Below are positions 681 to 59,036 of a DNA stretch of 64,000 nt, piece by piece. The notes under the pieces are model-generated. The model was not told the origin of the DNA. It was given only the letters and a program-made list of their open reading frames with translations, and did not search any database. A program made the translations under genes and the position numbers. The DNA is from an uncultured bacterium (lineage in GTDB: Bacteria; Patescibacteriota; Minisyncoccia; UBA6257; 2-01-FULL-56-20), in NCBI GenBank assembly GCA_963830935.1, contig CAWHOC010000005.1:38023-102022 (forward strand), read 5' to 3'. The stretch's first letter is position 1, and every line of letters starts with the position of its first letter.

Positions 681-795
681 GGACCAACGTCCCTTGAACC
701 GCGCCCTGACTTGTGCCCCCGCGAAGAATCGAACTTCGATTACAAGATCCGCAATCTTGCGTCCTATCCGTTGAACGACGAGGGCAAACGCAACC

Positions 796-854
796 GGATG
801 TCCTTTTGAGACGGAAATGCCACGTTGAAACGTGACCGTCTCAAAAGGACATCT
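796..854. repeat. long-stem hairpin, copy C of the conserved-loop hairpin family
   Basis: 18-bp perfect inverted repeat gatgtccttttgagacgg / ccgtctcaaaaggacatc with a 21-nt loop aaatgccacgttgaaacgtga. The loop shares AATGCCAC...GTGA with the reverse-complemented loop of copies A and B. It lies about 60 nt past the 3' end of the minus-strand gene 914..1363. Confidence 0.5.
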
Positions 855-913
855 GGTTGTTTATTGTTGATAATAAAAGAACAAGAGAAGGATACTAGAA
901 TCTCAGGAATTTT

Positions 914-4066: not shown

Positions 4067-7000
4067 CTAGTTGGTAAACCAGTGATGTTCGTGGCTAGGA
4101 ACCGGGAGCGCGATGGACGGGCTGAGGCGAAGCTGATGCTCGTGCCAGTGCGTCGCCATCGCTGCCAAGTCACAGCCCGTCAAGGAGGATCTGGTAGCTG
4201 CCCGTGCTGCCACCTGGTGCTGCCGAATTGAGCGCCGGTCCGGGGCGAGTAGGTCTTCACGAGCAAGGTCTTCGAAGAGCTGGACGGGATGACCCACTGG
4301 TGTGTTGACTCGGCACCATAGTTGAATGTCGCCGTGATCCGTGCCAGTCAGCGTCGTCGAAGCCAAAGAGCACTCGACGGAGCCGAGGCATCATAGAGGC
4401 CAAGTTTCTCGTCGTGCTCGTCGGTGCGACCAACGATCCTGCCGTCTCCAAGGTGCACTGATATCACCTGTCGGGTTCATGTTGCCACTGCCTGCCGTGA
4501 AGGTGAATTCACCAATGGTGTTACCAACAGCCAGGAGAGCTGTTCGGCGTTGACCATCCGGTCGTACCGGCGACATTCAACGTCGTCTGGTAGATCGTGA
4601 AGAGGTTACCCATACCACTTGAGAGGGAAACGTACGTCGTCGTCGCGTTGGTCGCGTTGGTGTACTGGTAGCTCTGCAAGTCATACGCGTGCGTTCCGCC
4701 TGATGTCGCATACGGGTATGCATTCGTATCCGCCACCAAGTTCACGTACGTCGTGCTGTTCACAGGAACCGAGAGACCGGACAAGTTGAAGGTCAACACG
4801 CCGCTCTGCTCGCTCGCCGTGCTCAACACGTTTCCGCTCGTATCCGTCAACCGATAGTTGAAGAGATCCGAAGCATTGCCCTGTGGTCGAGGTGATTCGT
4901 CGTGGTCGCAGCGTCGATGATCGTTACCTGCGTCAATGTCTCGCTGCCGTTATTATCAGCAGCAAACTGGTATTGAGCCACGTTCACGCCCGGAACATTC
5001 ATGCCAAGCTATGAGGCCTGCGACGTGCCTGCCGAGAGCGATCCGGTCAAGGTGCCTCCCGTGTTGAAGGCGAGATCCTGACCCGGAACCGGAGTGGCAA
5101 GCGAGATCGCGTTGCCCGCCTGGGTTGACGCATTCACTGCATAGAGATCCGTCGCGCCGCCGCGGTCGTGGTCGTGCTCGCATTCGAGCTGATGTTTGCA
5201 TAAACATCAAGCGTTACGGAGCCGTTCGCGGCGATCGAGATCGGCGCGTTGCTGTTGAAGCTGTAGACGCCCGTGCTCGCGACCGTTGCATAGGTCTGGC
5301 CGAGCTGCGTGCTGCCATCCATCACTTCAAGGTTGGTCAACCAGCTCGGGTACGCAGCGAGAACCGTGCTCGTTACCTGGATGGTAACGCCGGTCAAATT
5401 GACCGGGTTAACCTGTCCGGCAGTGAGCGTGTACGATCCGATCTTCACCTGCTGTGCGCCAGCCGAAGCCGACACCGGGGTACCCAAGCCATAGTTCTCG
5501 TTCACAACAAGATTCGTGCTTTGAGGCAAGAATGTGAAGGGTGTTGCCCGGAACCAGAAGATACTCGGCCCGGACCGGTCAATACGTCGTGTAGCTCTGC
5601 GCGGCAGTGCACCGGTCGTACCGTCAAACGTCACCTGCACAGAACCCGTGGAGGTCGCATTGATATCACCGTAGACCGTCAAGACGCGGGTCGTGTTGGC
5701 CGGGATGATGTAGTTCAAGTTGCCAGTGCCTTCAGGGACAGCTGTAGTGCCAGGTCGCGTTGACCGTGGTGCCGATCTGGGCGCCCTGATCGTCAATGAC
5801 GCGGAAGTTGTTGATCGTCTGAGCGACGGTCGGCGTGATAGTGAAGTTCATTTGAGTGAACTTGATGCTGTCGCCGGAAGCCAAGACGTCAAACTTCGCG
5901 AGCACCTGGTTGGTGTTCCCTGCCACCACATTGGTGGTCGGGCTCGCCGGATCCCTGGATACTACGACGCCGCCGTTGTTGATCTGAACGTTGGAGAAGG
6001 TAACCGGGAAGCCTCCATTGTTAAGAACGTTCTGGATGCTTGCGCCGATGCCGACTCCATACGTGGTGTCAACCGCCTGAATGTCAGACGACTGCTGTAT
6101 GGAGAACTGGAACGTGCGGTTTACGCCGCCAGTGATGTCCGCATAGAGCGACAACACCGCCGATTGGCCGGAGGTCAACATGAGCGGCGCGCCGGAAAGG
6201 TCGAACGTCGCGATATTGTTGCTGCCAAGCGAGGAAAGCGTCGCGCCAAGCTGGGTCGAACCATCCATCAGTTTGATGTTCTGGAGATAGCTCGGCGTTA
6301 CGCTTCCGATATTCGTGAAGGTCAACGCGGTCACCTTGACCGGGTTGTTGCCGGCCTGAACCGTTACCTGACCGACGAGATCATTCAACTGGCCCGCATT
6401 ACACCGTTGTTAAGCGATGACGTCGCGCTCGTGATATTAAGCGTCGCCAAGTTATTGACCGATGCAATCGTGAACTGGGCGCTGTTCAACGGGAAGTTGC
6501 CCGAGAACGTGCCGCCGGTTACGTTAGCCGCGGAAGCCAAGCCGATCTGGAAGATGTGGCCTGAGTTCGACGCAGCCTGCGATCCGGTCTCTCCGCCATT
6601 GTTGACATCAACCGTGACGGTGACGACCATCGTGGAATTCGCCGGGACCGTAAAGAGTCCTGCGCCATTCGAGAAGGTGATCGCGCCATTGTTGAAGCCG
6701 AGGTTTGACGCCAACTTGGTCGCGCCACTGTAGAGGTAGACGTTGTTCAAGTCGGAATCCTGCGAAAGTCCTGAACGGGTCAAGACCAAGTTCGTGACGG
6801 TGACGGGTGTCGCGCCAGCCGTGAAGTCAAGCTTCAGGACCGGAGTGTTCGACCGCGCCTGCCGCTACGTTGACCGAACCCGGGGTCTGCGTGGATCGAC
6901 GGAGCGATCGCGACAACGGAGCGCTGAGCCCTGTCGCGAAGCACCGTTACGTCCGTGAACCGTGGTCACCGTGGTCGTGTACCCGTGCTCATCGAATTGA

Positions 7001-7412
7001 TGAAAGCGCGGGTCTTAGGACCAAAGTAACCAACCGAAGGGGTGATGCCGTTCGCTGCCTGGAATTTTCCGAGCGCTGCTTGCGTCAGCGCGCCGAAGTA
7101 TTCGGTCGGAGTGGCGAGACCGCCGTGAGATATCCTTGTTGAATCAAAAACTTCTGGAGGGCCGTGACTGCGCGCCTGTGGAACCAACGGTGAGGTCGCT
7201 GGTAAAGTCATAGGTCGTGCGCCGACCGAGGGCCGCCAGAAGCATTCAATTGGACTCTGGAGTGTCTGGATCTGGGCGAGCAAAGCCGCGATCTGAGCCT
7301 GAAGGCTCGACGTGGTCTGTGCGCTTGCCACAGGTACCAGCGCAGCTGCTCCTACCATCCACAATACTGTGGTGGCGGTGAGTGCCGCTGAAACCAATTT
7401 TTTAGAATTCAT
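4067..7412 (-). pseudogene. large secreted surface protein (signal peptide, PG-binding-like motif, Thr/Ser/Asn-rich repeat domains) fragmented into at least 6 frames
   Basis: The 7412 ORF begins MNSKKLVSAALTATTVLWMVGAAALVPVASAQ (signal peptide), has a coiled segment LQAQIAALLAQIQTLQ and GYFGPKTRAFIN (PG_binding_1-like). The downstream ORFs 6789-6385, 6388-5732, 5796-5134 and 4850-4521 carry repeated ...LMDGSTQLG... beta-rich T/S/N-rich modules, all in different frames. Confidence 0.5.
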
Positions 7413-15764: not shown

Positions 15765-15811
15765 GGTTTGTAGTTCACTATTGCTTATTATGCGGGAGCC
15801 CATACCTAACT

Positions 15812-15848
15812 TACATTTTAAAATCCCAAATTGGGATTTCAAAATGTA
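15812..15848. repeat. palindromic repeat element, copy 1 (GAAATCCCAA-N-TTGGGATTTC core)
   Basis: tacattttaaaatcccaaattgggatttcaaaatgta. A near-identical copy in inverted orientation lies at about 51489-51518. Both are intergenic. Confidence 0.5.
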
Positions 15849-15850
15849 AA

Positions 15851-16330
15851 TCAGACGTGCCGATCTGCGACATTCGTTGCAGCGTAACTGTCCGGCTTGA
15901 TCTTCACTTCAAAATTATTGGCGCGAATCATGCCGACGATCTCGTTGATGACCGCCTTTGTGGGACCGTTCATACCGATGTCCGCGTGGATCTCGAACTC
16001 GAAATCCGGAAGCGGGAACTTTTTGAGCTCGGCGAGGAGGCCCTGCGCGACCTCGAGCGAGATCACCGCCTCGCGGATCATCCGGTCGCGAAGCGTGTGA
16101 AACTTCCCAAGCTCGAAGCGACGGTAGAAATAGCGGCCGCCGTTGCCGATGCGGTGCACGACGACCGCGTTCACGAAGTCGGCGTTCTTATTTGAGAGGA
16201 GCTGGGAGTCGGTGCCGATCGTCACGCGATATTTGCGCAAAAGATCCGTTCCCATGAACGCGATGATCTCAGCCACCACTTCCGGCACCGTAAGGCGCAT
16301 TCCGAGCGAACTGATAAAGGTATCTGGCAT
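15851..16330 (-). CDS. DUF458/YkuK-like RNase H-fold protein
   Basis: ...RVTIGTDSQ...ADFVNAVVVHRIGNGGRYFYRR...TLRDRMIREAVISLEVA... matches the YkuK family pattern. Confidence 0.5.
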   Translation of the reverse strand: MPDTFISSLGMRLTVPEVVAEIIAFMGTDLLRKYRVTIGTDSQLLSNKNADFVNAVVVHRIGNGGRYFYRRFELGKFHTLRDRMIREAVISLEVAQGLLAELKKFPLPDFEFEIHADIGMNGPTKAVINEIVGMIRANNFEVKIKPDSYAATNVADRHV

Positions 16331-23110: not shown

Positions 23111-23274
23111 GTATTTATTTTAACATACAAAAACGAAAGGGCTCTCCATAAAACAATGGCCAAATAACAAAAAACATCCTATTCGAGGGGCATCGCGGAG
23201 GCACGAAGGTGCCGAGCGCTGAGGCGGCCGGTCAGCAGGCCGGAACGCCGTTCCTGAGAATAGGATGTTTTTTG

Positions 23275-25415
23275 TTATTTGGTTTCCAATTGTTTTATGG
23301 AGAGCCCGATCTTGCCGTTCTCCGCTTTGATGATCTTCGCGCGGACGTGGTCGCCGAGATGGACGACGTCCTCCACCTGCTTCACAAAACCCTGCTTGAG
23401 CTCGGAGACGTGGATCATGCCGTCGGCACCGCCGCCGAGGTCGACGATCGCGCCGAATTCCAGGATCTTCACGATCGGGCCTTCCACGATCTCGCCAACT
23501 TTCCATTCTTTCGTCATGCCCAGGATCTCCGCGACGGCCGCCTCCACCTTTGCGAGGTCGACGCCGGAAACGTACACGCCGCCGTCCTCTTCGATGTCGA
23601 TGCCCGCGAGCTCGTACTTGGCGATGAGGCCGTTGATCATCTTTCCGCCGGGCCGATGACGGTGCCAATCTTCAGCGGATCGATCTTGAACTGGCGGATC
23701 TTCGGCACGAATGGCGAGATCGCCGTGCGCGGCGCGGGAAGCGTCGCCACGATCGTCTTCAAGATGTGCAACCGCGCGTCGCGCGCCTGCGCGAACGCCT
23801 TCTCGAGCAACTCGATCGTAAGCCCATCCACTTTGACGTCCATCTGCATGCCGGTCACGCCATCGTTCGTTCCCGCAACCTTGAGGTCCATGTCGCCATG
23901 ATGATCTTCCGGTCCCTGGATGTCGGTCAGCACTTTGTAGTTATTCACGTCCGAGTGCCGTCCGGCGTGGTGCCCATCATGAGTCCCATCGCGATGCCCG
24001 CGGCCGGTTTCTTAAGCGGCACGCCGGCGTCCATGAGCGAGAGCGCGGACGCGCAGACCGTCGCCTGCGAGGACGAACCGTTGGAAGACATGATCTCCGA
24101 AACGACGCGGATCGTGTACGGGAATTCCTCCTTGCTCGGGATCAAACGCTCGAGCGATTTGCGCGCGAGGTTGCCGTGGCCGATCTCGCGGCGCCCGGGG
24201 CCGCGGAACGAGCCGACTTCACCGACCGAGAACGGCGGGAAGTTGTAGTGCAGCATGAAGCGGCGCTTGCCGGTGGTCTCCATCGTCTCGATCATCTGCT
24301 CGGCGCCGGGCGCCGCGAGCGTCGTGATGGCGAGCGCCTGGGTGTTGCCACGGACGAACAAGGCCGAGCCGTGCGTGCGCGAGAACAATCCCACTTCGGC
24401 ATCGAGCGCGCGGACCTCGTCAAGCTTGCGTCCATCCGGGCGCTGCTCTTTTTCCAAAATATTTTTATGGACGAGGTCGTTCACCATCTCGTCGTACAAG
24501 AATTCAACTGCTTTCCAGTTTATCTTTTCCTTTGTGGCGCCAAATTTTTCTTTGATGTGCAGATTGAGCTCATGATTCAGCGCGCCAACGGCGGTCGTGT
24601 GCTCCACTTTCGTCGGCTTATAGATCGCCGCCTCCAGCTTGTCCGCTAGGAACGCGCGGATCTCTGTTTTGATATCCTCGTCCGGCTCCGCGAGCGCAAC
24701 CTCCGCCTTCGGTTTGCCGATCTCGGCGCGGATCTGTTCCTGGAACGCGATCAATTTGTTGATCTCCTGCTGCGCGAGTTTGAAGCCCGCGACGACATCC
24801 TTCTCCTGCGCATCCAAACCGCCAAGCTCGATCATATTGATGCGATCCTTGGAGCCGGAAACGAACGCGTCGAAGATCGGCAGGTTCGGTTCGGCAAGAG
24901 CGCTGTTATCGGGATTCACGATGAACTGCTTGTCTGCCCGTCTATATCTGCGCGACGCGCACGCCGGCGACCGGGCCGTTCCACGGAATGTCGGAGATAA
25001 AGAGCGCGGTCGAAACGCCAAGCAATCCAACGAACTCCGGATCGTTCTGCTCGTCGATCTGCAGCACGGTGACGACCACCTGGATCTCGCGGCGCATCTT
25101 GTCGTTGAAGAGCGGGCGGATGGTGCGGTCCACCAAGCGACCGGCGAGGATCGCCTCTTCGGACGAACGGCCTTCGCGGCGCACGTAGCGGCTGCCCAAA
25201 ATTTTTCCCGCAGCGTAGAACTTCTCTTCGTAATCCACCTTGAGCGGCAAGTAGTCGATATCGCTATCTTTGCGCGCCATCACTGCCGTCGCGAGCACGA
25301 CGGTCTCGCCGTACTTCGCGATCACCGCCGCGTTCGCCTGCTCGGCCAACGCGGAAACCTCTATCGTCAACGTCTTTCCTGCGATCTCAACGGAAAACTG
25401 CTTTTTCTGTAACAT
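23275..25415 (-). CDS. pnp: polynucleotide phosphorylase (PNPase), split into 4 ORFs by about 3 frameshifts
   Basis: Track ORFs 24942..25415 (RNase PH domain 1), 23945..25030 (alpha-helical region and PH domain 2), 23637..23948 (KH domain) and 23275..23640 (S1 domain) are collinear with PNPase. Confidence 0.9.
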
Positions 25416-36949: not shown

Positions 36950-38268
36950 TTAGTTTCCCGCCGAGTTCATCGCGGCCTGCGCCTGGGTGAGCGCCGTCGT
37001 GGAATCGGCCGCGCCGTTCAGGACGTTCTCTATCGCGGTGTTCATAATACTGTCGTATTGCTCGCTCACGTTCTCGTGCCACGACTTCGCGGTGAGCGCC
37101 TGCGAGGCGAAGACCGCCGTCGTGGGACTCCCGAGGTCCGCCGCGATCACCGACCGCAGCGCCGGCGGCGCGCCCGTGTCCTTCTGGTATATGTTCTCAT
37201 CCGCGGGGGACGTCGTCAAACTGATGATGAAGTTCCAGGCGCCGGCAAGGTTCGTAGTGTCCCGCGAGACCGCAAGGCCGTTATACTTCGCGTAGTTAAC
37301 GGCCACCCCCGCGTTCGCCGGCTGCGGCATCGCCGCGACGCCATAATTGAGGAACGGCGCCGTCGCCTTTATCTCCGCGATCGCCGAAGAGTAATCAAAG
37401 ATGACCGCGGTCTTTCCCTGCGTGAAGCTCGCGAGCGCCGTTCCCATCCCGTCATTCCAGGTATAGTTCGAATTGGCGGCGTTCGAAAATTGCAGATAAT
37501 AATTGAATGCGTTGAGACCGGAGGTGTCGTTGCCGTTCCCGGCGGCGAAGGTCGCGGTGGACCCGCCGGGATACGTCATCTGCGTGCCGTTCTGCATCAT
37601 AAGGAGAAAGATGATGTCGGGCGCGTTCGGGATGCTGGTCTCCGAACCGCCGAGCGCGAGCGCTGCCTGCGTGATCTGGCCCTGCGCGTTCGTCACGCGG
37701 AGCGCCGGGAATGTCGGCCTGGAGCGCTTCCCACGTGCTGGGTATCGTCGCGATGTTCGCGCTATTGAACATGTCCTTGTTATAGATCATCGCGAGCGTG
37801 TCGATGGAAAGCGGCAACGCATAAATAGTAGCCGTTGGACACAAAGTCCTGCGAGACAATATCCGGGAAATCATTCTGCAATGTGACCTGATTGAACGTC
37901 GTCGCGAGCGCGGCGGGGATCGGTATGGCGACGCTCGTCCATTGCGAGAGATCCCGGTTCGGGATCTCGAAAATGTCCGGGCCGGTGCCGGCGGCAAGCG
38001 CCGCGAGCAACTTGGTCCGATATTGGCTTGGATCGATCTCCGTGTATCTGATCTGCGCCTGCGTTCCCGAGCCGGGGCCGGAATACGCCTGGATCATATC
38101 GTTGAATGCTTTGGAGCTGTCCGTGCCCCAAATAGTAAGCGAAACAGCAGAACCGCTTCCGCCGCCTCCCGTGCGGATGCTCAAAAAGAACACCACCGCG
38201 CCAACGATCACCAAAAGTACGGCGGCCCCGATGATGATGATCTGCTTTTGAGTAAAATGTGTTGGCAT
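36950..38268 (-). CDS. ABC transporter extracellular solute-binding protein (family 1), with 2 frameshifts
   Basis: The 37780..38268 ORF has an N-terminal TM, then LTIWGTDSSKAFNDMIQAYSG...IRYTEIDPSQYRTKLLAALAAGTGPDIFEI. It continues in ORFs 37452..37997 and 36950..37696 (MIYNKDMF...IPSTWEAL...). Confidence 0.7.
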
Positions 38269-38295
38269 CTGTTTATATCTTCACCGCTCGTCATC

Positions 38296-38378
38296 TGACC
38301 GTATGCGCATATCCTTTTTTATGCGCTCACCGTCCTCGTGTGGCATTCGCGCATAAAAAGGATATGCGCATACGGTCA
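38296..38378. repeat. long-stem hairpin, copy A of the conserved-loop family; overlaps the gyrA stop codon
   Basis: tgaccgtatgcgcatatccttttttatgcgc - TCACCGTCCTCGTGTGGCATT - cgcgcataaaaaggatatgcgcatacggtca: a stem of about 31 bp with one bulge, and a 21-nt loop identical to that of copy B. Confidence 0.55.
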
Positions 38379-40814
38379 GATCACCACTGTTCCTGCTACG
38401 CGATCGCCGCTCTTAAGATCCATGATGTGCACGCCTTGCGCGGAACGCCCCGTCTTCCGCACCGTCGAGATCTCCGTGCGGATCATCTGGCCTTTCGCCG
38501 AAAGCGCGAATATCTCCTTCTCTTCCGACACAACGTGCGCGGAAACGACCGGGCCCGTCTTCGGCGTCACCTCGGCGGTCTTGATCCCCGACCCGCCGCG
38601 GCTCTGTACTTTGTATTCCTTGAGCGACGTCTGCTTCGCGAAGCCGTGCTCCATGACGACGAGCAGCATTGCCGCATCTCCTCTTATTATATCAAAGCCG
38701 GCAACCTCGTCGTTCTGTTTTTTCAATTTGATCGCGCGAACACCCGCTGCGGTGCGGCCCATCGGGCGCACCTGCTTCTCATCAAAGCGGATGGACTGGC
38801 CCTGCCGCGTGGCGAGCACCACCTGCTCCGCGCCCGTGGTGAGCTTGGCCCACTTGAGGTGATCGCCCTTTTTGAGCGAGAGCGCGATGATGCCGGTGCG
38901 GCGGATGTTCTCAAAATCCTCTAGTGGCGTTTTTTTGATGACGCCCTGCTTGGTGACCATCATGAGATATTTCCGCCCGGTTTTTCCTTCGGCCTTCGCC
39001 CCCTTCGCGGAATAGCTGACGATCGCGCTCACGTTCTCGTCGGCGGGGAGCTCCAAAAAGTTCTGGATGGCTCTGCCTTTGGAGGTACGCGTCGCCTGCG
39101 GGATCTCGTAGACCTTCGTCTGGAACACGCGCCCGCGGTCGGTAAAGAAGAGCACGTTGTCGTGCGTGTTCGCACTGAAGAAGTGCGAGAGGAAATCCTC
39201 ATCGGCCACTTCGGAACCGATCAGCCCCTTGCCGCCACGCCGCTGCACCTTGAACGTGCCCGGCGGCAGGCGCTTGATGTATCCCCCGCCGGAAACGGTG
39301 ACGATCGCCTCCTCTTCCGGAATCAAATCCTCGTCGCTCATCGCCTCCACCGCGCGGCCGACCACCTTCGTGCGCCGCTCGTCGCCATACTTGTCCTTGA
39401 GCTCCGTCACTTCGTCCTTGACGATCTTCAGCACCCGCGCGGTGCTCTTTAATATCGCCTTGAGCTCGTCAATGAGCGCGTGCTTTTCCTTGAGTTCCGT
39501 CTCAATCTTCAACCGCTCGAGCGCGGCGAGCGTCTGCAGGCGCATTTCCAAAATTGCCGTCGCCTGGAGATCGCTCAACTTGAAGTTCTTCATCAGGTTC
39601 GCGTGCGCGACCTCTTTGTCTTCGGACTTGCGGATCGTCGCGATCACCCTATCGATCGCGTCGAGCGCGATCATGAGCCCTTCCAAAATATGCGCGCGTT
39701 CCTCTGCTTTGCGAAGGTCGAACTTCGTGCGGCGCGTGATGATCGTCTTCCGGTGCTCAAGATATTCCGCCAGAATATCCTTCAGCGTGAGCAGGCGCGG
39801 CTCGATGCCGTTCACAAGCGCGATCATGTTGAAGTTGAAGTTCTTTTCGAGGTCGGTGTGCTTGTAGAGCCAGTTTAACACTTTCTGCGGAGCGACGTCG
39901 TTCTTGAGCTCGATCACAATGCGCATGCCGTCGCGGTCGGACTCGTCGCGCAGGTCGCGGATGCCCTCGATCTTTTTGTCCTGCGCGAGCTCCGCGATCG
40001 TGCTGATGAGCTCGGACTTGTTCACCTGGTACGGGATCTCGGTGACGATGATGTCGAACTGGCGGCTATTCTTCTTCTCCACGATCTCCGCCTTCGCGCG
40101 CGTGATGATGCCGCCGCGTCCGGAGACGTACGCTTCTTTGATCGCCTTATTGTCGTAAATGATCCCGCCGGTCGGGAAATCCGGCCCTTTGACGAACTGC
40201 AAAAGGTCCTCGCTCGTGGCGTCGCCGTTATCGGCAAGATAAAGGATGGCGTCGGCGATCTCGCCCAGATTGTGCGGGGGAATGCTCGTCGCCATACCGA
40301 CGGCAATGCCGAGCGCACCGTTCAGTAAAAGGTTCGGCAGCTTCGCGGGAAGCACGGTCGGCTCGTTGCGCGTGCCGTCGTAGTTCGGGATCCAATCCAC
40401 CGTTTCCTTCTCAATGTCCGAGAGCATCTCGTTCGCGATCGCGGCGAGCTTGGCTTCGGTATAACGCATGGCGGCCGGCGGGTCACCGTCCACCGAACCA
40501 AAGTTCCCCTGCCCGCGCACGAGCGGATAGCGCAAGGAAAAGTTCTGCGCCATGCGGACCATCGTGTCATATATAGAGGAGTCGCCGTGCGGATGATACT
40601 TCGCCATCGTTTCGCCGACCACATACGCGGATTTGCGAAACTTGGCGGTGGAAAGCACGCCCATGTCCCACATCGCCCACAACACGCGGCGGTGCACCGG
40701 CTTCATGCCGTCACGAACGTCGGGCAGGGCGCGCGCGACGATCACCGACATCGCGTAGCTAAGATACGAATCGCCCAGCTCTTTGGTAATTTCCTGTGGT
40801 TCCATGTCTGCCAT
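38376..40814 (-). CDS. gyrA: DNA gyrase subunit A
   Basis: 812 aa, with the active-site region ...AAMRYTE... and C-terminal beta-pinwheel repeats. Confidence 0.95.
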
Positions 40815-48215: not shown

Positions 48216-48337
48216 GCTCACGCGCTCACTGCGTTCGCTTTTGAGAACCCTCGGTTCTCAATACTCTCCTACACGGGAGGGGCAGCCTGCCCCTCCCGAC
48301 CCCACCCCTCTCGTTCGATTCCCGTCTGCATCGAGCA

Positions 48338-48413
48338 GCAAGAAAACAAAAACAGGCATATTCGCCGAACGGTCCATCTTCGGGAGGCGAATATGCTGTT
48401 TTTGTTTTCTTGC
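48338..48413. repeat. 27-bp-stem hairpin immediately 3' of the tmRNA gene
   Basis: gcaagaaaacaaaaacaggcatattcgcc - 20-nt loop - ggcgaatatgctgtttttgttttcttgc. Located between the tmRNA 3' end and the att-like repeat, near a 25-bp perfect palindrome cgggaggggcag-c-ctgcccctcccg at about 48274-48298. Confidence 0.5.
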
Positions 48414-48415
48414 TG

Positions 48416-48732
48416 TGGAAGCGGGCGGAATCGAACCGCCGTGTAAAGATAATGCCGATGGGCCGTCTACGAGTGTAGTTTAGCTAGGCTAAGCGAAGTG
48501 ATCATATTTTCGCGCCGGGCGTATGATCGTCAACCTGGCGCTAGTCCCCTTATATAAGACCGGTATCAGTCCAAGGAACCCGGACCGGCCGATCCCGAAG
48601 GGCTAGGCGTAAGCCAGAGCGAACTTCGGAGCTGCAACTTTGGAGTTGGCAGTTATAGGTTGTGCAACAATAACGACGTTGCCAACGACTCGCAAACCCA
48701 TGGATTATCTTTATCGAAGCCAATGCGCTCCC
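48416..48732 (-). ncRNA. ssrA: tmRNA (ssrA)
   Basis: Minus-strand 5' end GGGAGCG-CATTG-GCTTCGAT (tmRNA consensus GGGGnnGnnnnGGnUUCGAC...). The 3' end GGCGG-TTCGATT-CCGCC-CGCTTCC-A is a T-arm with an acceptor that pairs with the 5' end. About 317 nt. Candidate tag ORF ...GCC AAC TCC AAA GTT GCA GCT CCG AAG TTC GCT CTG GCT TAC GCC TAG (ANSKVAAPKFALAYA*). Confidence 0.75.
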
Positions 48733-48856: not shown

Positions 48857-49069
48857 ATGGAAGAAACACATGTAATGCCCGGCAAGGGCATGACCTGCAA
48901 GTGCCCGCATCACAAAGCGATACCAGTACTCATCATCCTCATCGGTTTGGACTTCCTTTTGGGAGCGACGGGAACCCTCTCATGGAACTTCGTTGACGTC
49001 ACCTGGCCGATCCTCTTGATGATCGGCGGCATCGTGAAGCTGGTCCGCTGCGGCTGCTGCAGCAAGTAA
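48857..49069 (+). CDS. small membrane protein with C-terminal CGCC motif
   Basis: 70 aa with two hydrophobic helices (AIPVLIILIGLDFLLGA; WPILLMIGGIVKLV), ending ...VRCGCCSK. Confidence 0.4.
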   Translation: MEETHVMPGKGMTCKCPHHKAIPVLIILIGLDFLLGATGTLSWNFVDVTWPILLMIGGIVKLVRCGCCSK

Positions 49070-49071
49070 AT

Positions 49072-49172
49072 AAAAACAGTCCGTCATTGTCTCGTTCCGA
49101 CGTAGCGACCGCAGGAAGTCCCGCGGGAGGACGTCCACTCGCTCGACAACAACGGACTGTTTTTATTTTTGT
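49072..49172 (+). terminator. large structured terminator-like element (10-bp outer stem enclosing about 60 nt, then a T-run)
   Basis: aacagtccgt ... acggactgtt followed by tttatttttg. The interior contains the palindrome tcccgcggga. Confidence 0.45.
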
Positions 49173-51488: not shown

Positions 51489-51518
51489 TTTTTGAAATCC
51501 CAATTTGGGATTTCAAAA
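51489..51518. repeat. palindromic repeat element, copy 2 (inverted relative to copy 1)
   Basis: tttttgaaatcccaatttgggatttcaaaa lies between the convergent rplT and NUDIX genes. It matches the reverse complement of 15812-15848 over about 26 nt. Confidence 0.5.
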
Positions 51519-55407: not shown

Positions 55408-56085
55408 TTACGCCACCGTGTCCCCCGGCTTCCGCTCCTCTGCGGTCTCGGCGGCGTTCACCGCGGCGCGCGTTGAGGTCGTCGGCTTCGGCAGGATCAG
55501 ATCCGGCACGGCAAGGAGCACGAACGCGGCGATGAATGCCATGATGCCGGCGCCCACAAAGACCACATTGTAACCAAGCGTGCCGGCGATGACACCGCCG
55601 AGGAATCCGGCGACGCCCGCGCCCACACCACTCACCGACGAATCAAGCGACCAATCGAGCGAGATCGCATTCTTGTCCAGGTGCCGCGAATAGATAGTGG
55701 GCCACGATGCGTAATAGAACGCGAAAGCGATGGCCTGGACCGCGTGGATAAGATAGAGTTCCCACACCCGCGTGACCCAGCACATCGCGATCGCGGAAAT
55801 GCCGACGAGCAGCAATCCGCCGACGAGCGCCATAAAATCGTCATGTTCGCCGGGCGTACTGTCGAGATAGTTCGCGATGGGAATTTGTGCGACGGAGCGG
55901 ACGATCCAGTAGATCGCCGCCGCGATGCCGATGACCATGAGCGATCCTCCCACCACACGCTGGATGATGAACACGGAGAACACCGGATCGATCAGCCCCC
56001 ATCCGGCAAGTAAAAAGAAATCCGAGATCACGAAAAACTTCACCACCCGGCCCACCTTTACATTGATATTTACTTTAATGCGCAT
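55408..56085 (-). CDS. 6-TM membrane protein (MFS-half-like)
   Basis: 225 aa with six predicted helices. No signature motif recognised. Confidence 0.4.
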   Translation of the reverse strand: MRIKVNINVKVGRVVKFFVISDFFLLAGWGLIDPVFSVFIIQRVVGGSLMVIGIAAAIYWIVRSVAQIPIANYLDSTPGEHDDFMALVGGLLLVGISAIAMCWVTRVWELYLIHAVQAIAFAFYYASWPTIYSRHLDKNAISLDWSLDSSVSGVGAGVAGFLGGVIAGTLGYNVVFVGAGIMAFIAAFVLLAVPDLILPKPTTSTRAAVNAAETAEERKPGDTVA

Positions 56086-56115
56086 AGTTTCTTTCTCTTA
56101 TTATACTGATTAGCG

Positions 56116-56193
56116 AAACAGAAGCGATGTCTTTTTATACGCTCACCGTCCTCGTGTGGCATTTGCGTATAAAAAGGACATCGCTTCTGTTTC
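56116..56193. repeat. long-stem hairpin, copy B of the conserved-loop family; overlaps the stop codon of the Clp ATPase gene
   Basis: gaaacagaagcgatgtctttttatacgc - TCACCGTCCTCGTGTGGCATT(t) - gcgtataaaaaggacatcgcttctgtttc. It has the same loop as copy A and an unrelated stem. Confidence 0.55.
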
Positions 56194-58708
56194 ACGCTTG
56201 GTTTACAAAATCGAATTTGTCATCTTTCACCACGCACTGCACCTTCGCGCCCTTTGCGATCTTCTTGGAGAGCAACGCCTCGGAGAGCGGCGCGCGGATG
56301 TATTCATCGATGGCGCGCCGGAGCGGCCGCGCGCCGTACGCGGGGTCGTAGCCAAGCTTGGCGATTTTCCCGACGGCATCGGGACTGAACGAAAGTATGA
56401 TTCCCTGCTCGTGCAGGGCGGCGGTGAGTTCGCTCAAATTGATGTTCACGATCTGCGGAAGCTGGGCAAGCTCCAGGTTCCGGAACACGATGATCTTCGA
56501 AAATCGGTTGAGAAGTTCCGGCTTCAGTACATCCACAAGCCGCGCCCTCAAATAATCCGCGATCTCCGCCATGGACTGCCCTTTCGCGAGCGCATCGTTG
56601 ATGATGTCCGAGTGCGCGTTCGAAGTGGCGATCACGATCGTGTTCGTAAAATCGATGACGCGGCTCATGTTGTCCGTGAGACGGCCGTCATCCAATACTT
56701 GCAGGAACAAATTTAAAATATCCGGGTACGCCTTCTCAAACTCGTCGAGGAGCACCAGGCTGTATGGCTTTTCGCGCACGGCGTCGGTGAGCGCGCCGCG
56801 CACGGTGCCGTCCGGCGATCCGATAAAGCGGAAGAAGCTCGTCTTATCCTGATACTCCGTCATGTCAAAACGGACCATCAGTTTCTCCGAGCCGAATTGG
56901 ATCTCCGCGAGCTGTTTCGCGAGCTCCGTTTTTCCGACGCCGGTCGGCCCCACAAAAAGGAAGCTCGCAATCGGACCGCCCTTGCGCGCGAGGCCGCTCC
57001 GGTATTCACGCAATGCCTGCGCGACGGCCTTGACCGCCTCGTCCTGCCCGATGATGCGCTCGTGGATGATGTCCTCCATGTGCAACAGCGTCTCCGCTTC
57101 ATTTCCCTCCGCCTCGTGCATAGGGATGTTCACCTTCTCTTCGGCGACGGCCGTCACGCGGTCGGGCGTCACCACTTTCTCCCCGCGCCGCTCGGCGTCC
57201 ACGACGGCGCTCTTCAGCAGCTCCTCGGCGCTCGAGGGAAGGTGCTTATCGTGCAGATATTTCTTCGCGAGCACCACCGCGCGCTTGATCGCGCCAAAGC
57301 TCACCGCGATCTTGGATCGCCGCTCAAGCAAAAAACTTTCGTAGATCAGGATCTTTTCGGCGTCCGCCTCATTGATCTCGTTCACCATGATCGTCTCGAA
57401 GTTCCCGACGAAGTCGCTGCGCGGCTCGATGAACTCCTTGAACTCGTGCGGGTAGGACGTGCCCACGATCGGGAACCGGTTCGAGGTGATGACGGACATC
57501 AAGGCATCCGCCGCGGAAAGGTACGCGGCGCCCGAGGTGCGTACAAGATTATGGATGTCGGGAATAAAGAGGATGATGTTCCCCGCGGTAAGGATCTCAT
57601 CCACCACGTTCTTTAGGCGGGCGTTCAATTCCTCCGGCGCGGCGCCAGCGATAAGGTTCTGCATCTGCAGACCGACGAGGCGCCGGTCGAACAGTCCTTC
57701 GGGAACATCGTCCTTCGTCAGGCAATAGGCAAGATGCCGGATGATGGCCTCCTTCCCGCTTCCCGGCTCGCCGATGAGGATCGCGTTCGGATCGATGGGC
57801 TTGCCGATCGCCTCGATGAGATGCTCGTACTCCTGTTCGTGGCCGATGAGAAATCCCGCCTGGGCGTCCCGCGCGAGATCGGTATAGTCAATGCCATACT
57901 TGTCGAGCACCGGCGTCGGGCGCGATGTCCACGCGCGGTTCATGATGCGATGCGGGATCACGCGGTGGGTCTCCATCGCGAATCCGCCCACCACGTCCGG
58001 GAGCCGCGAGAACGGCCCGATCCTCGTGGCGAGCGCGCTGAAAATGAGCGCGCGCTCAAGATCGCCTTCTTCTATATTGAACAGCGAGAAGAGCCGGTCG
58101 AGCGACTCGTCCGCCATCGCGGGGAGCGCCGAAAAGAGGTCCGACGGCGTGATGAACTCGTGCCCCGCGCCCGCCGCGGAGGCGAACGCGCGCGCGGCGA
58201 GCGGCGTCATAACGTCGGCATACGCCTTCCCCGGCGGCGCGGCGGGGTCTTGCATCAGCGTGTCGAGTTTTGCCTTGAATGCTTTCGGGTCCACGTCCAG
58301 GCGCTGAAGGCCGTTCTGCACCTGGGGAAGTTCGAACAGGCGGCCGGTGAGCTCAAGGATGAAGTTCTTTTTTGTGATGATGCAACGGTCTACCGCGCGC
58401 TCGAGCATGGCGAACGCCGCCGCGTTCATCGTTTCGGCAAGATTCACCCTTCCCGCTTTCGGCAGTTCGGAGATCGGCGTATCACCTTCGCCGCGGTGGA
58501 TCAGGAGGTCGATGAGCACGAGCACGAGAAATATCCCGACATAGAACAGGGTGGGAATATCGCGGGCAAGGAGGAACACGAATGTCGCGACGACGATCAC
58601 AAGGTAGGAAACATAACTGACCACGCGGACGAGCATCCTTCCCGCGATCGTCATGCGCAGGCGCGCGTCGTCAAAATAAAGATCGTACTTAGAGATGTTT
58701 TGCGGCAT
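56192..58708 (-). CDS. membrane-anchored Clp/Hsp100-family AAA+ ATPase with degenerate D1 and intact D2
   Basis: N-terminal hydrophobic helices (RMLVRVVSYVSYLVIVVATFVFLLA, LFYVGIFLVLVLIDLLI). D1 has Walker A GEPGSGKE and Walker B ILFIPDIH, both non-canonical. D2 has GPTGVGKT and LVLLDEFEKA. C-terminal Clp small domain (ARPLRRAI). Start taken at an internal ATG to limit overlap with the upstream gene. Confidence 0.75.
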   Translation of the reverse strand: MPQNISKYDLYFDDARLRMTIAGRMLVRVVSYVSYLVIVVATFVFLLARDIPTLFYVGIFLVLVLIDLLIHRGEGDTPISELPKAGRVNLAETMNAAAFAMLERAVDRCIITKKNFILELTGRLFELPQVQNGLQRLDVDPKAFKAKLDTLMQDPAAPPGKAYADVMTPLAARAFASAAGAGHEFITPSDLFSALPAMADESLDRLFSLFNIEEGDLERALIFSALATRIGPFSRLPDVVGGFAMETHRVIPHRIMNRAWTSRPTPVLDKYGIDYTDLARDAQAGFLIGHEQEYEHLIEAIGKPIDPNAILIGEPGSGKEAIIRHLAYCLTKDDVPEGLFDRRLVGLQMQNLIAGAAPEELNARLKNVVDEILTAGNIILFIPDIHNLVRTSGAAYLSAADALMSVITSNRFPIVGTSYPHEFKEFIEPRSDFVGNFETIMVNEINEADAEKILIYESFLLERRSKIAVSFGAIKRAVVLAKKYLHDKHLPSSAEELLKSAVVDAERRGEKVVTPDRVTAVAEEKVNIPMHEAEGNEAETLLHMEDIIHERIIGQDEAVKAVAQALREYRSGLARKGGPIASFLFVGPTGVGKTELAKQLAEIQFGSEKLMVRFDMTEYQDKTSFFRFIGSPDGTVRGALTDAVREKPYSLVLLDEFEKAYPDILNLFLQVLDDGRLTDNMSRVIDFTNTIVIATSNAHSDIINDALAKGQSMAEIADYLRARLVDVLKPELLNRFSKIIVFRNLELAQLPQIVNINLSELTAALHEQGIILSFSPDAVGKIAKLGYDPAYGARPLRRAIDEYIRAPLSEALLSKKIAKGAKVQCVVKDDKFDFVNQA

Positions 58709-59036
58709 AGAAAAGGATGACGGCGGGAATGGCAATCCATATGATGTAGATGAAGGCGAACACGATCGCAATCAAGAGATAAAATATGCCGCCGATCGCC
58801 ACACGCCCCGCCCGGAACACGATTCCGAGGATCCTGCCGATCACGCTGTAATCCTTATAGAGCGGCTCGAAGAAATGCCGCAGGGTGATGGCGACCGCGA
58901 ACGATTGGTCCGCGGCGGTGATCGCTCCCATAAAACGCCGCGCGATCATGCGCGACCCGTCAACATACCAATGATGAAAAAAGTCCACAAAGCGGTAGAA
59001 AAACCGCCGGGCAAGATAGACGACCGAAAAATCCAT
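58689..59036 (-). CDS. small membrane protein
   Basis: 115-aa track ORF with two C-terminal TM helices. Confidence 0.4.
   Translation of the reverse strand: MDFSVVYLARRFFYRFVDFFHHWYVDGSRMIARRFMGAITAADQSFAVAITLRHFFEPLYKDYSVIGRILGIVFRAGRVAIGGIFYLLIAIVFAFIYIIWIAIPAVILFYAAKHL

Follow-up and report, generated by a model that had tools for sequence, protein, structure and literature searches.

Nested hairpins with a conserved tip and hypervariable arms form a lineage-restricted family at gene 3' ends in Patescibacteria

The 64,000-nt stretch of contig CAWHOC010000005.1 analysed here (the window), which comes from an uncultured bacterium of the Patescibacteriota lineage Minisyncoccia, contains three very long hairpins, designated copies A, B and C (Table 1). 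Copies A and B lie at the ends of gyrA and of a Clp-type ATPase gene, respectively, and copy C lies beside a tRNA-Arg gene. They belong to a family of hairpins in which a structured tip is conserved and the outer arms vary almost freely while staying paired. The explanation which we prefer, and to which we would give an even chance, is that A, B and C represent a lineage-specific nested palindrome resembling the repetitive extragenic palindromic (REP) sequences and the miniature inverted-repeat transposable elements (MITEs), that its arms are perfected by copying at the DNA level, and that it acts as a 3'-end hairpin when transcribed.

The initial annotation of the window had reported long perfect or near-perfect stems at three loci, with an identical 21-nt loop in A and B and a related loop of opposite orientation in C, and had regarded them as members of one family. 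These observations were confirmed. All three are near-perfect hairpins of 24-33 bp, and the window contains exactly two occurrences of the 21-nt loop TCACCGTCCTCGTGTGGCATT (38327-38347 and 56143-56163), with no further one even when three mismatches are allowed and none expected from 100 shuffles. The tip of copy C is inverted relative to those of A and B and antisense to the adjacent genes; the neighbour genes of all three copies are on the minus strand. Predicted RNA folds have energies of -64.7 kcal/mol for copy A (z = -11.3 against shuffled controls), -48.9 kcal/mol for copy B (z = -10.5) and, for copy C, -48.2 kcal/mol on the plus strand (z = -10.0) and -44.8 kcal/mol on the minus strand, and the copies score 68.5, 66.7 and 81.8 bits, respectively, with covariance model R1. 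The stems had also been said to differ completely, which is too strong. The inner 12-18 bp are homologous and carry compensated changes (CATATCC-T5-ATGCGC in A, GATGTCC-T5-ATACGC in B and GATGTCC-T4-GAGACGG in C), all three sharing beside the tip a YCC, then T4-5, then a 6-7 bp helix, and only the outer halves are unrelated.

The family is much larger than these three copies. A collection with one genome for each of 185,579 species, to which the source genome of the window does not belong, was scanned with the pattern T-run/N8/AATGCCAC/N8-9/GTGA/N6-8/A-run. Of the 33 loci obtained, 16 were scattered chance matches without hairpins and 17 were long hairpins, all of them in five metagenome-assembled genomes (MAGs) of the candidate phyla radiation (CPR): Minisyncoccia SPRUCE_130 (at least 9 copies), Parcubacteria clean384 (3), CAZXCH01 (3), OY970358 (1) and CAVVHF01 (1). 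A metagenome scan added 59 loci, and the pattern scan of viral contigs gave no copies. Altogether there are 74 instances representing 56 distinct hairpins. The retrieval patterns demanded the T-run and, for the metagenomes, also AGGA; none demanded a long stem, a perfect stem or a particular position, and yet the stem under every tip is 20-38 bp long (32 on average over the 56 copies). The carriers are MAGs of Minisyncoccia/Paceibacterota or uncharacterised metagenome contigs with flanks homologous to those MAGs, and GyrA homologues likewise place the clade in Candidatus Paceibacterota/Minisyncoccia. All copies are intergenic. They stand singly, tens of kilobases apart, at a density of three per 64-kb window, and truncated copies are few (L039, L087, site 3247-3389 of L015 and 4836-4893 of L002, L numbers denoting loci outside the window).

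The conserved unit comprises approximately 45 nt. It consists of a T4-7 run, an inner helix of 5-7 bp, an asymmetric loop with AAATGC on one side and a single A on the other, a 5-bp apical helix and an AGGA tetraloop, followed on the 3' side by the complementary inner helix and an A-run. From base to apex, the layout common to the family is thus a variable outer stem, T-run:A-run pairing, the covarying inner helix, the asymmetric loop, the apical helix and the tetraloop. What appears as a loop in the sequence is itself structured, being made up of a 6-nt/1-nt internal loop (AAAUGC opposite A), the 5-bp helix and the tetraloop; in the A/B subtype the helix is broken by a bulged A. The dominant tip, AAATGCCACGTAGGAACGTGA, accounts for 37 of the 56 copies and is followed in frequency by the A/B subtype, AAATGCCACACGAGGACGGTGA. 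The conservation of the tip that had been proposed for the window therefore extends to the whole family and is accompanied by covariation of the apical helix (CACGT/ACGTG, CACAT/ATGTG and CACTG/CAGTG). Tip variants retain AAATGC and an AGGA-type loop, which reads AGGA, GAGGA or GGAGGA and so resembles a Shine-Dalgarno (SD) sequence. In an alignment of 20 copies, 93% of the cells are paired and 17 of the 23 lower-helix pairs have changed on both sides, such double changes being far above those in shuffled and slid controls. No Rfam 15 family matches the element at the gathering threshold, only tRNA and tmRNA passing in the window, and at E <= 10 locus A matched only generic miRNA-precursor hairpin models far below threshold.

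How the arms evolve could be followed among orthologous copies, which homology of the flanks sorted into 16 clusters. Tip orientation is the same within every cluster. For 37 orthologous pairs with flanks less than 93% identical, identity is 82% in the flanks (mostly coding), 92% in the tip, 85% in the T-run and inner helix, 65% in the outer arm (52% for random sequence) and 56% in the first 25 nt after the hairpin (45% for random sequence). Conservation is thus higher in the tip than in the genes nearby, and the outer arms diverge at nearly the rate of unconstrained DNA and are still paired. Indeed, the 56 stems contain 1766 Watson-Crick pairs, 11 G.U, 15 A.C, one other mismatch and 10 bulges, which makes the arms 98.5% Watson-Crick with G.U no commoner than A.C on the sense strand. 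Differences between orthologous arms include transversions and indels, and at L002 and L088, where the flanks are 97% and 89% identical, the outer arms are unrelated. Where the 5' arm is coding, the 3' arm mirrors it: the window has ATC TGA/TCAGAT and L014 has ATT TGA/TCAAAT, a synonymous change in gyrA. Compensatory stems had been taken by the initial annotation to indicate selection on structure. This does not follow, because the arms are near-neutral and yet almost entirely Watson-Crick without an excess of G.U, and arm-to-arm copying of DNA fits at least as well. As far as can be judged from the sequences, such a pattern would arise more easily if one arm were copied from the other as DNA than if RNA selection had favoured compensatory substitutions step by step.

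Several loci illustrate the course of this evolution. The gyrA copy is shared by the window, L014 (SPRUCE_130) and L099, and the clpC copy by the window, L024 and L055, all with the A/B tip subtype; the tips are identical to that of copy A at the two clpC sites outside the window and nearly identical to it at the two gyrA sites. A copy between HlyD and MFS genes is present in six genomes and displays a graded series of tip variants. At L075 there is a hybrid allele, the arms of which resemble two different alleles; it no longer folds and its tip is decaying. An ancestral non-palindromic state was considered for this allele and rejected, and since its 3' arm still complements the gene end, recombination of two palindromic alleles inside the core is the more likely origin.

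Position and orientation were examined after turning all copies so that the tip reads AAATGCCAC. In 45 of the 56 copies the tip strand carries an open reading frame (ORF) that ends between -10 and +12 nt from the first hairpin base, so the location at gene 3' ends noticed in A and B is general and mostly in the sense orientation (approximately 90%), only 3-4 of the 56 loci, including copy C, being solely antisense. The stop codons preceding the copies are TAA, TAG and TGA. Downstream, a TATAAT-like box lies within 5-30 nt of many copies and precedes the next start codon, and copies between the genes of an HlyD-like adaptor and an MFS pump, which likely form an operon, end 2-13 nt before the ATG. 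A-rich 5' and T-rich 3' bases occur in 30 of the 56 copies; the outer stems of these resemble the plain bidirectional terminators of the same genomes, the 45-nt module taking the place of the tetraloop. Copies A and B have no U-tract and were not reported by the consensus terminator scan. The initial annotation was thus right that the element is neither a simple terminator nor a MITE conserved over its full length. Locus L048 has two copies 400 nt apart in opposite orientation (6244-6324 and 6730-6810). One directly follows a tRNA-Pro gene, and the other, located approximately 25 nt before the 5' end of 23S rRNA, is considered non-terminating because it lies downstream of a TTGACA-N17-TATACT promoter and ahead of the 23S rRNA.

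The gyrA and clpC loci of relatives were fetched without reference to the element and give an unbiased view of both junctions. Between gyrA and the following solute-binding protein (SBP) gene, the site is filled in the window, L014 and L099. It is clean in L093, L094 and L097, in which GyrA is 91-96% identical and the stop and start codons abut or overlap (TAAATG, TAATG). L095 and L100 retain deletion remnants. In L095, ATCTGA|TCAGA and a short spacer remain as the base of the palindrome, the whole interior having gone. Of the L099/L014 allele, L100 has kept the distal 3' arm together with the spacer after the hairpin, and its TAG now serves as the gyrA stop. In the outgroup L096 the spacer measures 24 nt and includes a stretch of 9 nt that matches the arm in the window. 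Similarly, the clpC|MFS junction is filled in the window, L024 and L055 and empty in L101-L104, where ClpC is 78-91% identical and 2-14 nt without a hairpin separate the genes; one clpC-empty relative is the same genome as a gyrA-empty one. From the tight hairpin-free junctions and the remnants it follows that the element is dispensable and prone to deletion. Beyond the core, both junctions contain an inverted copy of the upstream gene end. At further junctions the element alternates with hairpins of other families: the site that bears this tip in L003 and L041 is taken in the window by another palindrome (15806-15854), the one that bears it in L002, L059, L062 and L088 is taken in L068 by a GC-rich module (7011-7157), and the one that bears it in L015 and L067 is taken in L047 by two hairpins with TTAATCTGC-type tips (180-354). 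Empty sites, remnants, truncations and exchange between families are hallmarks of a dispensable repeat of the REP/MITE kind and not of a fixed regulatory element.

These findings may be brought together as follows. The element sits right after stop codons with the tip almost always in the sense orientation. In about half of the copies the core takes the place of the loop in a seemingly ordinary A-tract/GC-stem/T-tract terminator, and in the others, A and B included, it lies within an otherwise tight gene junction. The arms may stay perfectly palindromic through copying from one to the other, a change in one arm being transferred to the second; the likely route would be intra-strand template switching on the hairpin during replication, the process known as quasi-palindrome correction. 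Because the 3' arm is free to copy codons, the palindrome could spread outward to include the final codons of the gene upstream. When transcribed, the resulting rod of 80-100 nt would form a 3'-end hairpin, which may terminate transcription where a U-tract is at its base and elsewhere insulate cistrons from one another or act as a stabiliser. A trans-acting factor probably recognises the tip while it is folded as a hairpin. The long palindromes are unstable and frequently disappear through deletion. A bolder proposal, which we regard as unlikely, is that the tip is the handle of a dedicated hairpin-processing system of these reduced genomes, which creates and keeps perfect palindromes from any sequence flanking the core and thereby insulates transcription units. 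The processing could be done by a nuclease or an HUH enzyme on extruded hairpins of DNA, or by an enzyme of the RNase III type measuring from the AGNN-like tetraloop.

Several points weigh against a mobile repeat with DNA-copied arms. Comparison of filled and empty sites at gyrA|SBP and clpC|MFS disclosed no direct target-site duplication, and no transposase or partner gene was identified in the fragments of the carrier genomes. The sense bias, the stable orientation and a tip more strongly conserved than coding sequence are what would be expected of an RNA element selected by the host, and the occurrence of the A/B subtype at both gyrA and clpC in the window and in SPRUCE_130 points to long vertical persistence over frequent movement. 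Template switching is read from patterns that strong RNA selection combined with a high mutation rate could also produce. In addition, the 37 pairs behind the identity values are statistically non-independent, the ORF calls underlying the positional counts are heuristic, and the constancy of the T-run and AGGA is partly a matter of construction because the retrieval patterns demanded both. The selfish-repeat and RNA-module explanations are compatible with each other; REPs are both selfish and functional.

The main alternative, a serious one that we nevertheless consider less likely than not, is a cis-acting RNA module selected by the host at the 3' ends of mRNAs and tRNAs, in which selection at the RNA level maintains the complementarity of the arms. 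In this case a protein or the anti-SD of 16S rRNA would bind the long rod and its tip, or an RNase III-type enzyme would cut there, and the role of the module might be termination, definition or protection of 3' ends, uncoupling of cistrons, or holding of ribosomes for re-initiation. Such a module would account for the tip-strand ORFs ending at the hairpin base (45/56), for a tip that is 92% identical among orthologues as against 56% for the noncoding flanks, and for an apical helix that covaries beneath invariant loops with SD-like variants. The copies inside the likely HlyD-like/MFS operon and the one after tRNA-Pro also suit it, as do the lack of flipped tips among orthologues and the decaying tip of the non-folding L075. 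It has difficulty, however, with arms that are near-randomised and still 98.5% Watson-Crick, a state hard to attain by stepwise compensation, with G.U not being favoured over A.C (11 versus 15), and with the relatives in which gyrA and SBP or clpC and MFS directly abut, showing the module to be dispensable. Nor would one expect of it so narrow a range (5 of 185,579 species genomes matched the pattern), several unrelated tip families on one scaffold that swap at the same sites, or a few antisense copies, C among them. Ordinary intrinsic terminators with loops similar by chance are very improbable. Although 30 of the 56 copies have an A-tract/T-tract base and the position between a stop and the next promoter is appropriate, a 21-nt tip cannot converge to identity at dozens of non-homologous loci, A and B have no U-tract and are missed by the terminator scan, and copies in a tRNA leader, a 23S leader and a likely operon lie where termination would be harmful.

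A REP in the strict sense would be a single-stranded DNA hairpin nicked at or near the tip by an HUH/Y1 enzyme of the REP-associated tyrosine transposase (RAYT) or IS200/IS605 kind, its orientation reflecting the replication strand, and we consider this decidedly unlikely. The core is indeed a 35-45 nt imperfect, bulged palindrome, extragenic, multi-copy, lineage-restricted and recognised as a hairpin, and a companion family (tip TTAATCTTC) forms inverted pairs (L042 6801-6987 and L047 180-354) like those of bacterial interspersed mosaic elements (BIMEs). REPs and REPINs, however, are defined by a conserved GTAG or CGTC tetranucleotide serving as a terminal tag (PMC3733652). Here neither tetranucleotide is terminal. 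GTAG is confined to the dominant tip, within its apical helix, and CGTC to the commonest form of the inner helix; the A/B subtype (ATGCGC ... CACACGAGGACGGTG) lacks both. REP stems are conserved within a family, whereas in the present hairpins only the tip and approximately 12 bp are conserved and the outer 10-26 bp of the arms show no relationship from one locus to the next. The gene tables of the relatives' gyrA and clpC loci contain no RAYT (Y1/HUH) gene, the carrier fragments measuring 2-22 kb only, and the GC skew of the window is that of a single replichore, in which C is nevertheless inverted with respect to A and B. Coincidence, or the recent local duplication of a larger segment, would be supported by the initial three copies only and is practically negligible: the similarity of A and B ends approximately 17 nt on either side of the tip, which excludes the larger segment that the initial annotation had named as a refutation, and 56 distinct copies are found in other genomes.

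Turning to the genes next to the three copies (Table 1), the overlap with the stop codons of gyrA and of the Clp ATPase gene was as first described, the TGA codons lying in or at the base of the stem. The last codon of gyrA and its TGA stop (38381-38376) constitute the outermost 6 bp of hairpin A. The SBP gene that follows A is spread over three frames by two frameshifts when set beside its intact orthologue of 440 aa in L097, and is either a pseudogene or the product of indel errors in the assembly. Because these frameshifts suggest possible indel errors in the window, the single-base bulges of A and B should not be over-read. The true start of clpC is probably near 58699, since homologues have 835 aa. 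Copy C lies 54 nt past the unannotated minus-strand ORF 914-1363, for which the initial annotation gave approximately 60 nt.

Table 1. Positions of the three hairpin copies, their parts and neighbouring genes in the window, and of two companion hairpin families in the window and at other loci (L numbers)
Feature	Coordinates	Strand	Remarks
Copy A	38293..38381	-	33 pairs, one bulged A
Copy A, 5' arm (gene-sense reading)	38381-38349	-	
Copy A, tip	38327..38348	-	GAATGCCACACGAGGACGGTGA (38348-38327 in gene-sense reading); asymmetric internal loop (G/A)AAUGC versus A, apical helix CAC-A-CG:CG-GUG, AGGA tetraloop
Copy A, 3' arm (gene-sense reading)	38326-38293	-	
Copy B	56115..56193	-	28-30 pairs, one bulge
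Copy B, left arm (on plus strand)	56115-56142		
Copy B, tip (on plus strand)	56143-56164		
Copy B, right arm (on plus strand)	56165-56193		
Copy C	791..859	+	24-25 pairs
Copy C, tip	815-835	+	AAATGCCACGTTGAAACGTGA
gyrA	38376..40814	-	Pfam DNA_topoisoIV + DNA_gyraseA_C; TGA at 38376-38378
SBP gene downstream of A	36950..38268	-	start 24 nt past hairpin in the window
clpC/clpB-type AAA+ ATPase gene	56192..58771	-	TGA stop 56192-56194; 2-nt overlap with base of B
MFS transporter gene downstream of B	55408..56085	-	TATAAT box 7 nt past hairpin B
tRNA-Arg(GCG)	713..785	-	5' end 5 nt from copy C
Second hairpin family, window	23160-23282		
Second hairpin family, L005	6972-7104		
Second hairpin family, L014	249-397		
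Second hairpin family, L015	477-597		
Second hairpin family, L043	4015-4134		
Second hairpin family, L068	6036-6145; 7011-7157		
Second hairpin family, L096	8191-8292		
TTAATCTTC/GCAGATTAA family, L002	620-711		
TTAATCTTC/GCAGATTAA family, L005	1452-1530		
TTAATCTTC/GCAGATTAA family, L022	330-406		
TTAATCTTC/GCAGATTAA family, L030	223-300		
TTAATCTTC/GCAGATTAA family, L038	6425-6520		
TTAATCTTC/GCAGATTAA family, L042	6801-6870; 6893-6987		
TTAATCTTC/GCAGATTAA family, L047	180-246; 292-354		

The element is accompanied by others built in the same manner. When 562 kb of these genomes were surveyed for long perfect hairpins, the scaffold proved to be shared by at least five further tip families, several of which have copies in the window, and the arms of the plain terminators in these genomes are of the same style. 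A second family (Table 1) has a 25-bp perfect variable stem around a conserved GC-rich interior of 60-75 nt with its own sub-hairpins (...CGGAGGCNCGAAGGNGCCGAG...GGCCGG...CCGGAACGC...); it occurs in both orientations and has no Rfam match even at E <= 1. Hairpins with a 9-10 nt loop, TTAATCTTC(C) or GCAGATTAA, have perfect stems of 27-43 bp and are often arranged as adjacent inverted pairs like BIMEs/REPINs. Two more tip families have TTGTGATAAGAATAATTC and GTTGTTTCTTAACACTA. Two long hairpins of the A-tract/T-tract kind, at 49068-49168 and 2547-2670 of the window, enclose structured interiors that are rich in GC and measure 53 and 68 nt, and the interior of the former resembles L075 7841-7912 (tcgctccggcgtaagaacgcccactcgctc). 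The palindrome TTTTGAAATCCCAA(t)TTGGGATTTCAAAA has two copies in the window (15806-15854 and 51490-51518), the first of them right after the stop of an RNase H-like gene, which is the site of the AAATGCCAC element in L003 and L041.

Some other features were recorded in passing. The window contains a tmRNA gene (tag ANSKVAAPKFALAYA) directly followed by an 80-nt terminator (48336-48415 and 48413-48732); the stem of the terminator is lengthened by long A-tract:T-tract pairing, which exemplifies how terminators are built in this genome. A match to the Rfam LOOT RNA (RF03000) is present at L006 1481-1602, in the Parcubacteria MAG clean384, with 53.2 bits against a gathering threshold of 46.4. Every relative examined has 5-6 small T4SS_pilin/TrbC-like genes after the SBP gene (L093-L100, at locus coordinates of approximately 13.8-17.1 kb), and a XerC/D-type integrase gene is located a few kilobases beyond this cluster.

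A number of further identities were considered for the element and rejected. Recoding of stops, as by SECIS elements, does not agree with the use of all three stop codons or with the normal lengths at which GyrA and ClpC end. Integron attC sites were discarded for lack of a GTTRRRY core, the centre being conserved here and the copies dispersed after housekeeping genes, and CRISPR or TIGR arrays were discarded as the copies are single and tens of kilobases apart. The lack of matches in viral contigs speaks against a phage origin. The CACGT-N4-ACGTG of the tip is only loosely similar to parS, and its helix covaries, which would be needless for a dimeric operator or other double-stranded DNA site. 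On inspection, the GA/GA pairs of a kink-turn are missing on both strands. A CsrA site is at most a tentative idea: the AGGA tetraloop corresponds to the RGGA loop of the consensus obtained by in vitro selection (SELEX), and the conserved A two bases upstream is absent. A small ORF starting from the invariant AUG of AAAUGCC would encode unrelated peptides in the two subtypes (MPRRNVTVKK and MPHEDGERIKK) while the helix is preserved, and a promoter in the tip is contradicted by the TTGACG in TTTTTTGACGG, which is unconserved and lacks a corresponding -10 element. Flip-flop inversion, in which recombination of one arm with the other would turn the tip round, was dismissed because no orthologous locus has a flipped tip. 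Spacer-like copying of the arms from elsewhere found no support in 764 kb, in which no 13-mer of the arms matched outside its own locus or orthologues, with the sole exception of low-complexity A-rich terminator sequence. Insertion always into the loop of an existing terminator fits about half of the copies and fails for A and B, the empty sites of which are hairpin-free, and orientation set by replication does not fit a window that looks like a single replichore and contains the inverted copy C.

Patescibacteria, or CPR, make up a large share of bacterial diversity, and their non-coding DNA is almost unstudied. A published survey reports perfect inverted repeats to be denser in the CPR phyla than in any other phylum; it covered spacers of 0-8 nt only, offered no mechanism and did not describe these families (PMC13155455). 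The present family and its five or more companions offer a concrete and tractable case of this richness. Being gained and lost between close relatives, the elements at stop codons split genes that were formerly coupled. If arm-to-arm copying takes place, they would be a natural genome-wide example of palindrome maintenance by template switching; if the tip binds a factor, they would constitute a new 3'-end signal in organisms with obscure termination and RNA processing. Should a hairpin-processing system exist, it would define in Patescibacteria a new class of "self-perfecting" elements with a conserved centre and hypervariable arms and would help to explain the record density of inverted repeats in CPR. 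There is also a practical side. Because they mimic covarying RNA structure, such hairpins can mislead both covariation-based RNA discovery and gene callers; in one relative, for instance, the SBP gene had been called straight from the gyrA stop.

Compared with known systems, the element is most reminiscent of the REP, BIME and REPIN sequences of Proteobacteria, which are also short, extragenic, imperfect palindromes, multi-copy, lineage-specific and polymorphic among close relatives. Like REPs, the present copies are clustered after gene 3' ends and between cistrons, and the companion TTAATCTTC family even occurs in inverted pairs. REPs are thought to be selfish, yet they can stabilise the upstream mRNA or terminate transcription. 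The differences are nevertheless considerable: in REPs and REPINs the stem is conserved and the loop or spacer varies, whereas here the tip is conserved and a perfect stem of 20-30 bp varies, and the element has no terminal tag, is mostly in the sense orientation, has no RAYT identified with it and resides in Patescibacteria. ERIC/IRU, Correia, RUP/BOX and the Rickettsia RPE are MITE-like stem-loop repeats, and the element shares with them its non-coding nature, foldability, dispersal in intergenic or co-transcribed positions, presence/absence polymorphism and truncated remnants. MITEs, however, are conserved over their full length and have terminal inverted repeats and direct target-site duplications. 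Here only approximately 45 nt are conserved, filled and empty gyrA|SBP and clpC|MFS sites revealed no direct duplication, and the core is flanked by an inverted copy of neighbouring sequence, for instance GCGAATGAGTGA...TCACTCATTCGC in L055.

In the T7 intercistronic RNase III sites and the AGNN substrates of yeast Rnt1p, an internal loop or tetraloop rather than the stem specifies recognition. These are also long intercistronic hairpins, and AGGA fits AGNN; the likeness is one of analogy only, and the other tip families lack AGNN loops. The repetitive hairpin-forming elements, double-hairpin elements and GC clusters of mitochondrial genomes are small selfish hairpins (PMC2800124), which similarly invade intergenic DNA and one another and comprise several co-existing families; they are organellar, unrelated in sequence and not known to have a layout of conserved tip and variable arms. 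Bidirectional intrinsic terminators share with the element the position after a stop and before the next promoter, and about half of the copies have an indistinguishable A-tract/GC/T-tract base. They differ in that a structured 45-nt module here stands for the tetraloop on stems of 20-38 bp, that A and B have no U-tract, and that the T-run lies 5' and the A-run 3' of the inner helix, i.e. in the reverse order. Finally, quasi-palindrome correction, known from the genetics of E. coli, perfects inverted repeats by intra-strand template switching and introduces paired changes in one event. It is known at single mutational hotspots, and we are not aware of a description of it as the upkeep of a dispersed repeat family. 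Paired changes of this kind, as judged here from their patterns, are what the arms of these hairpins require.

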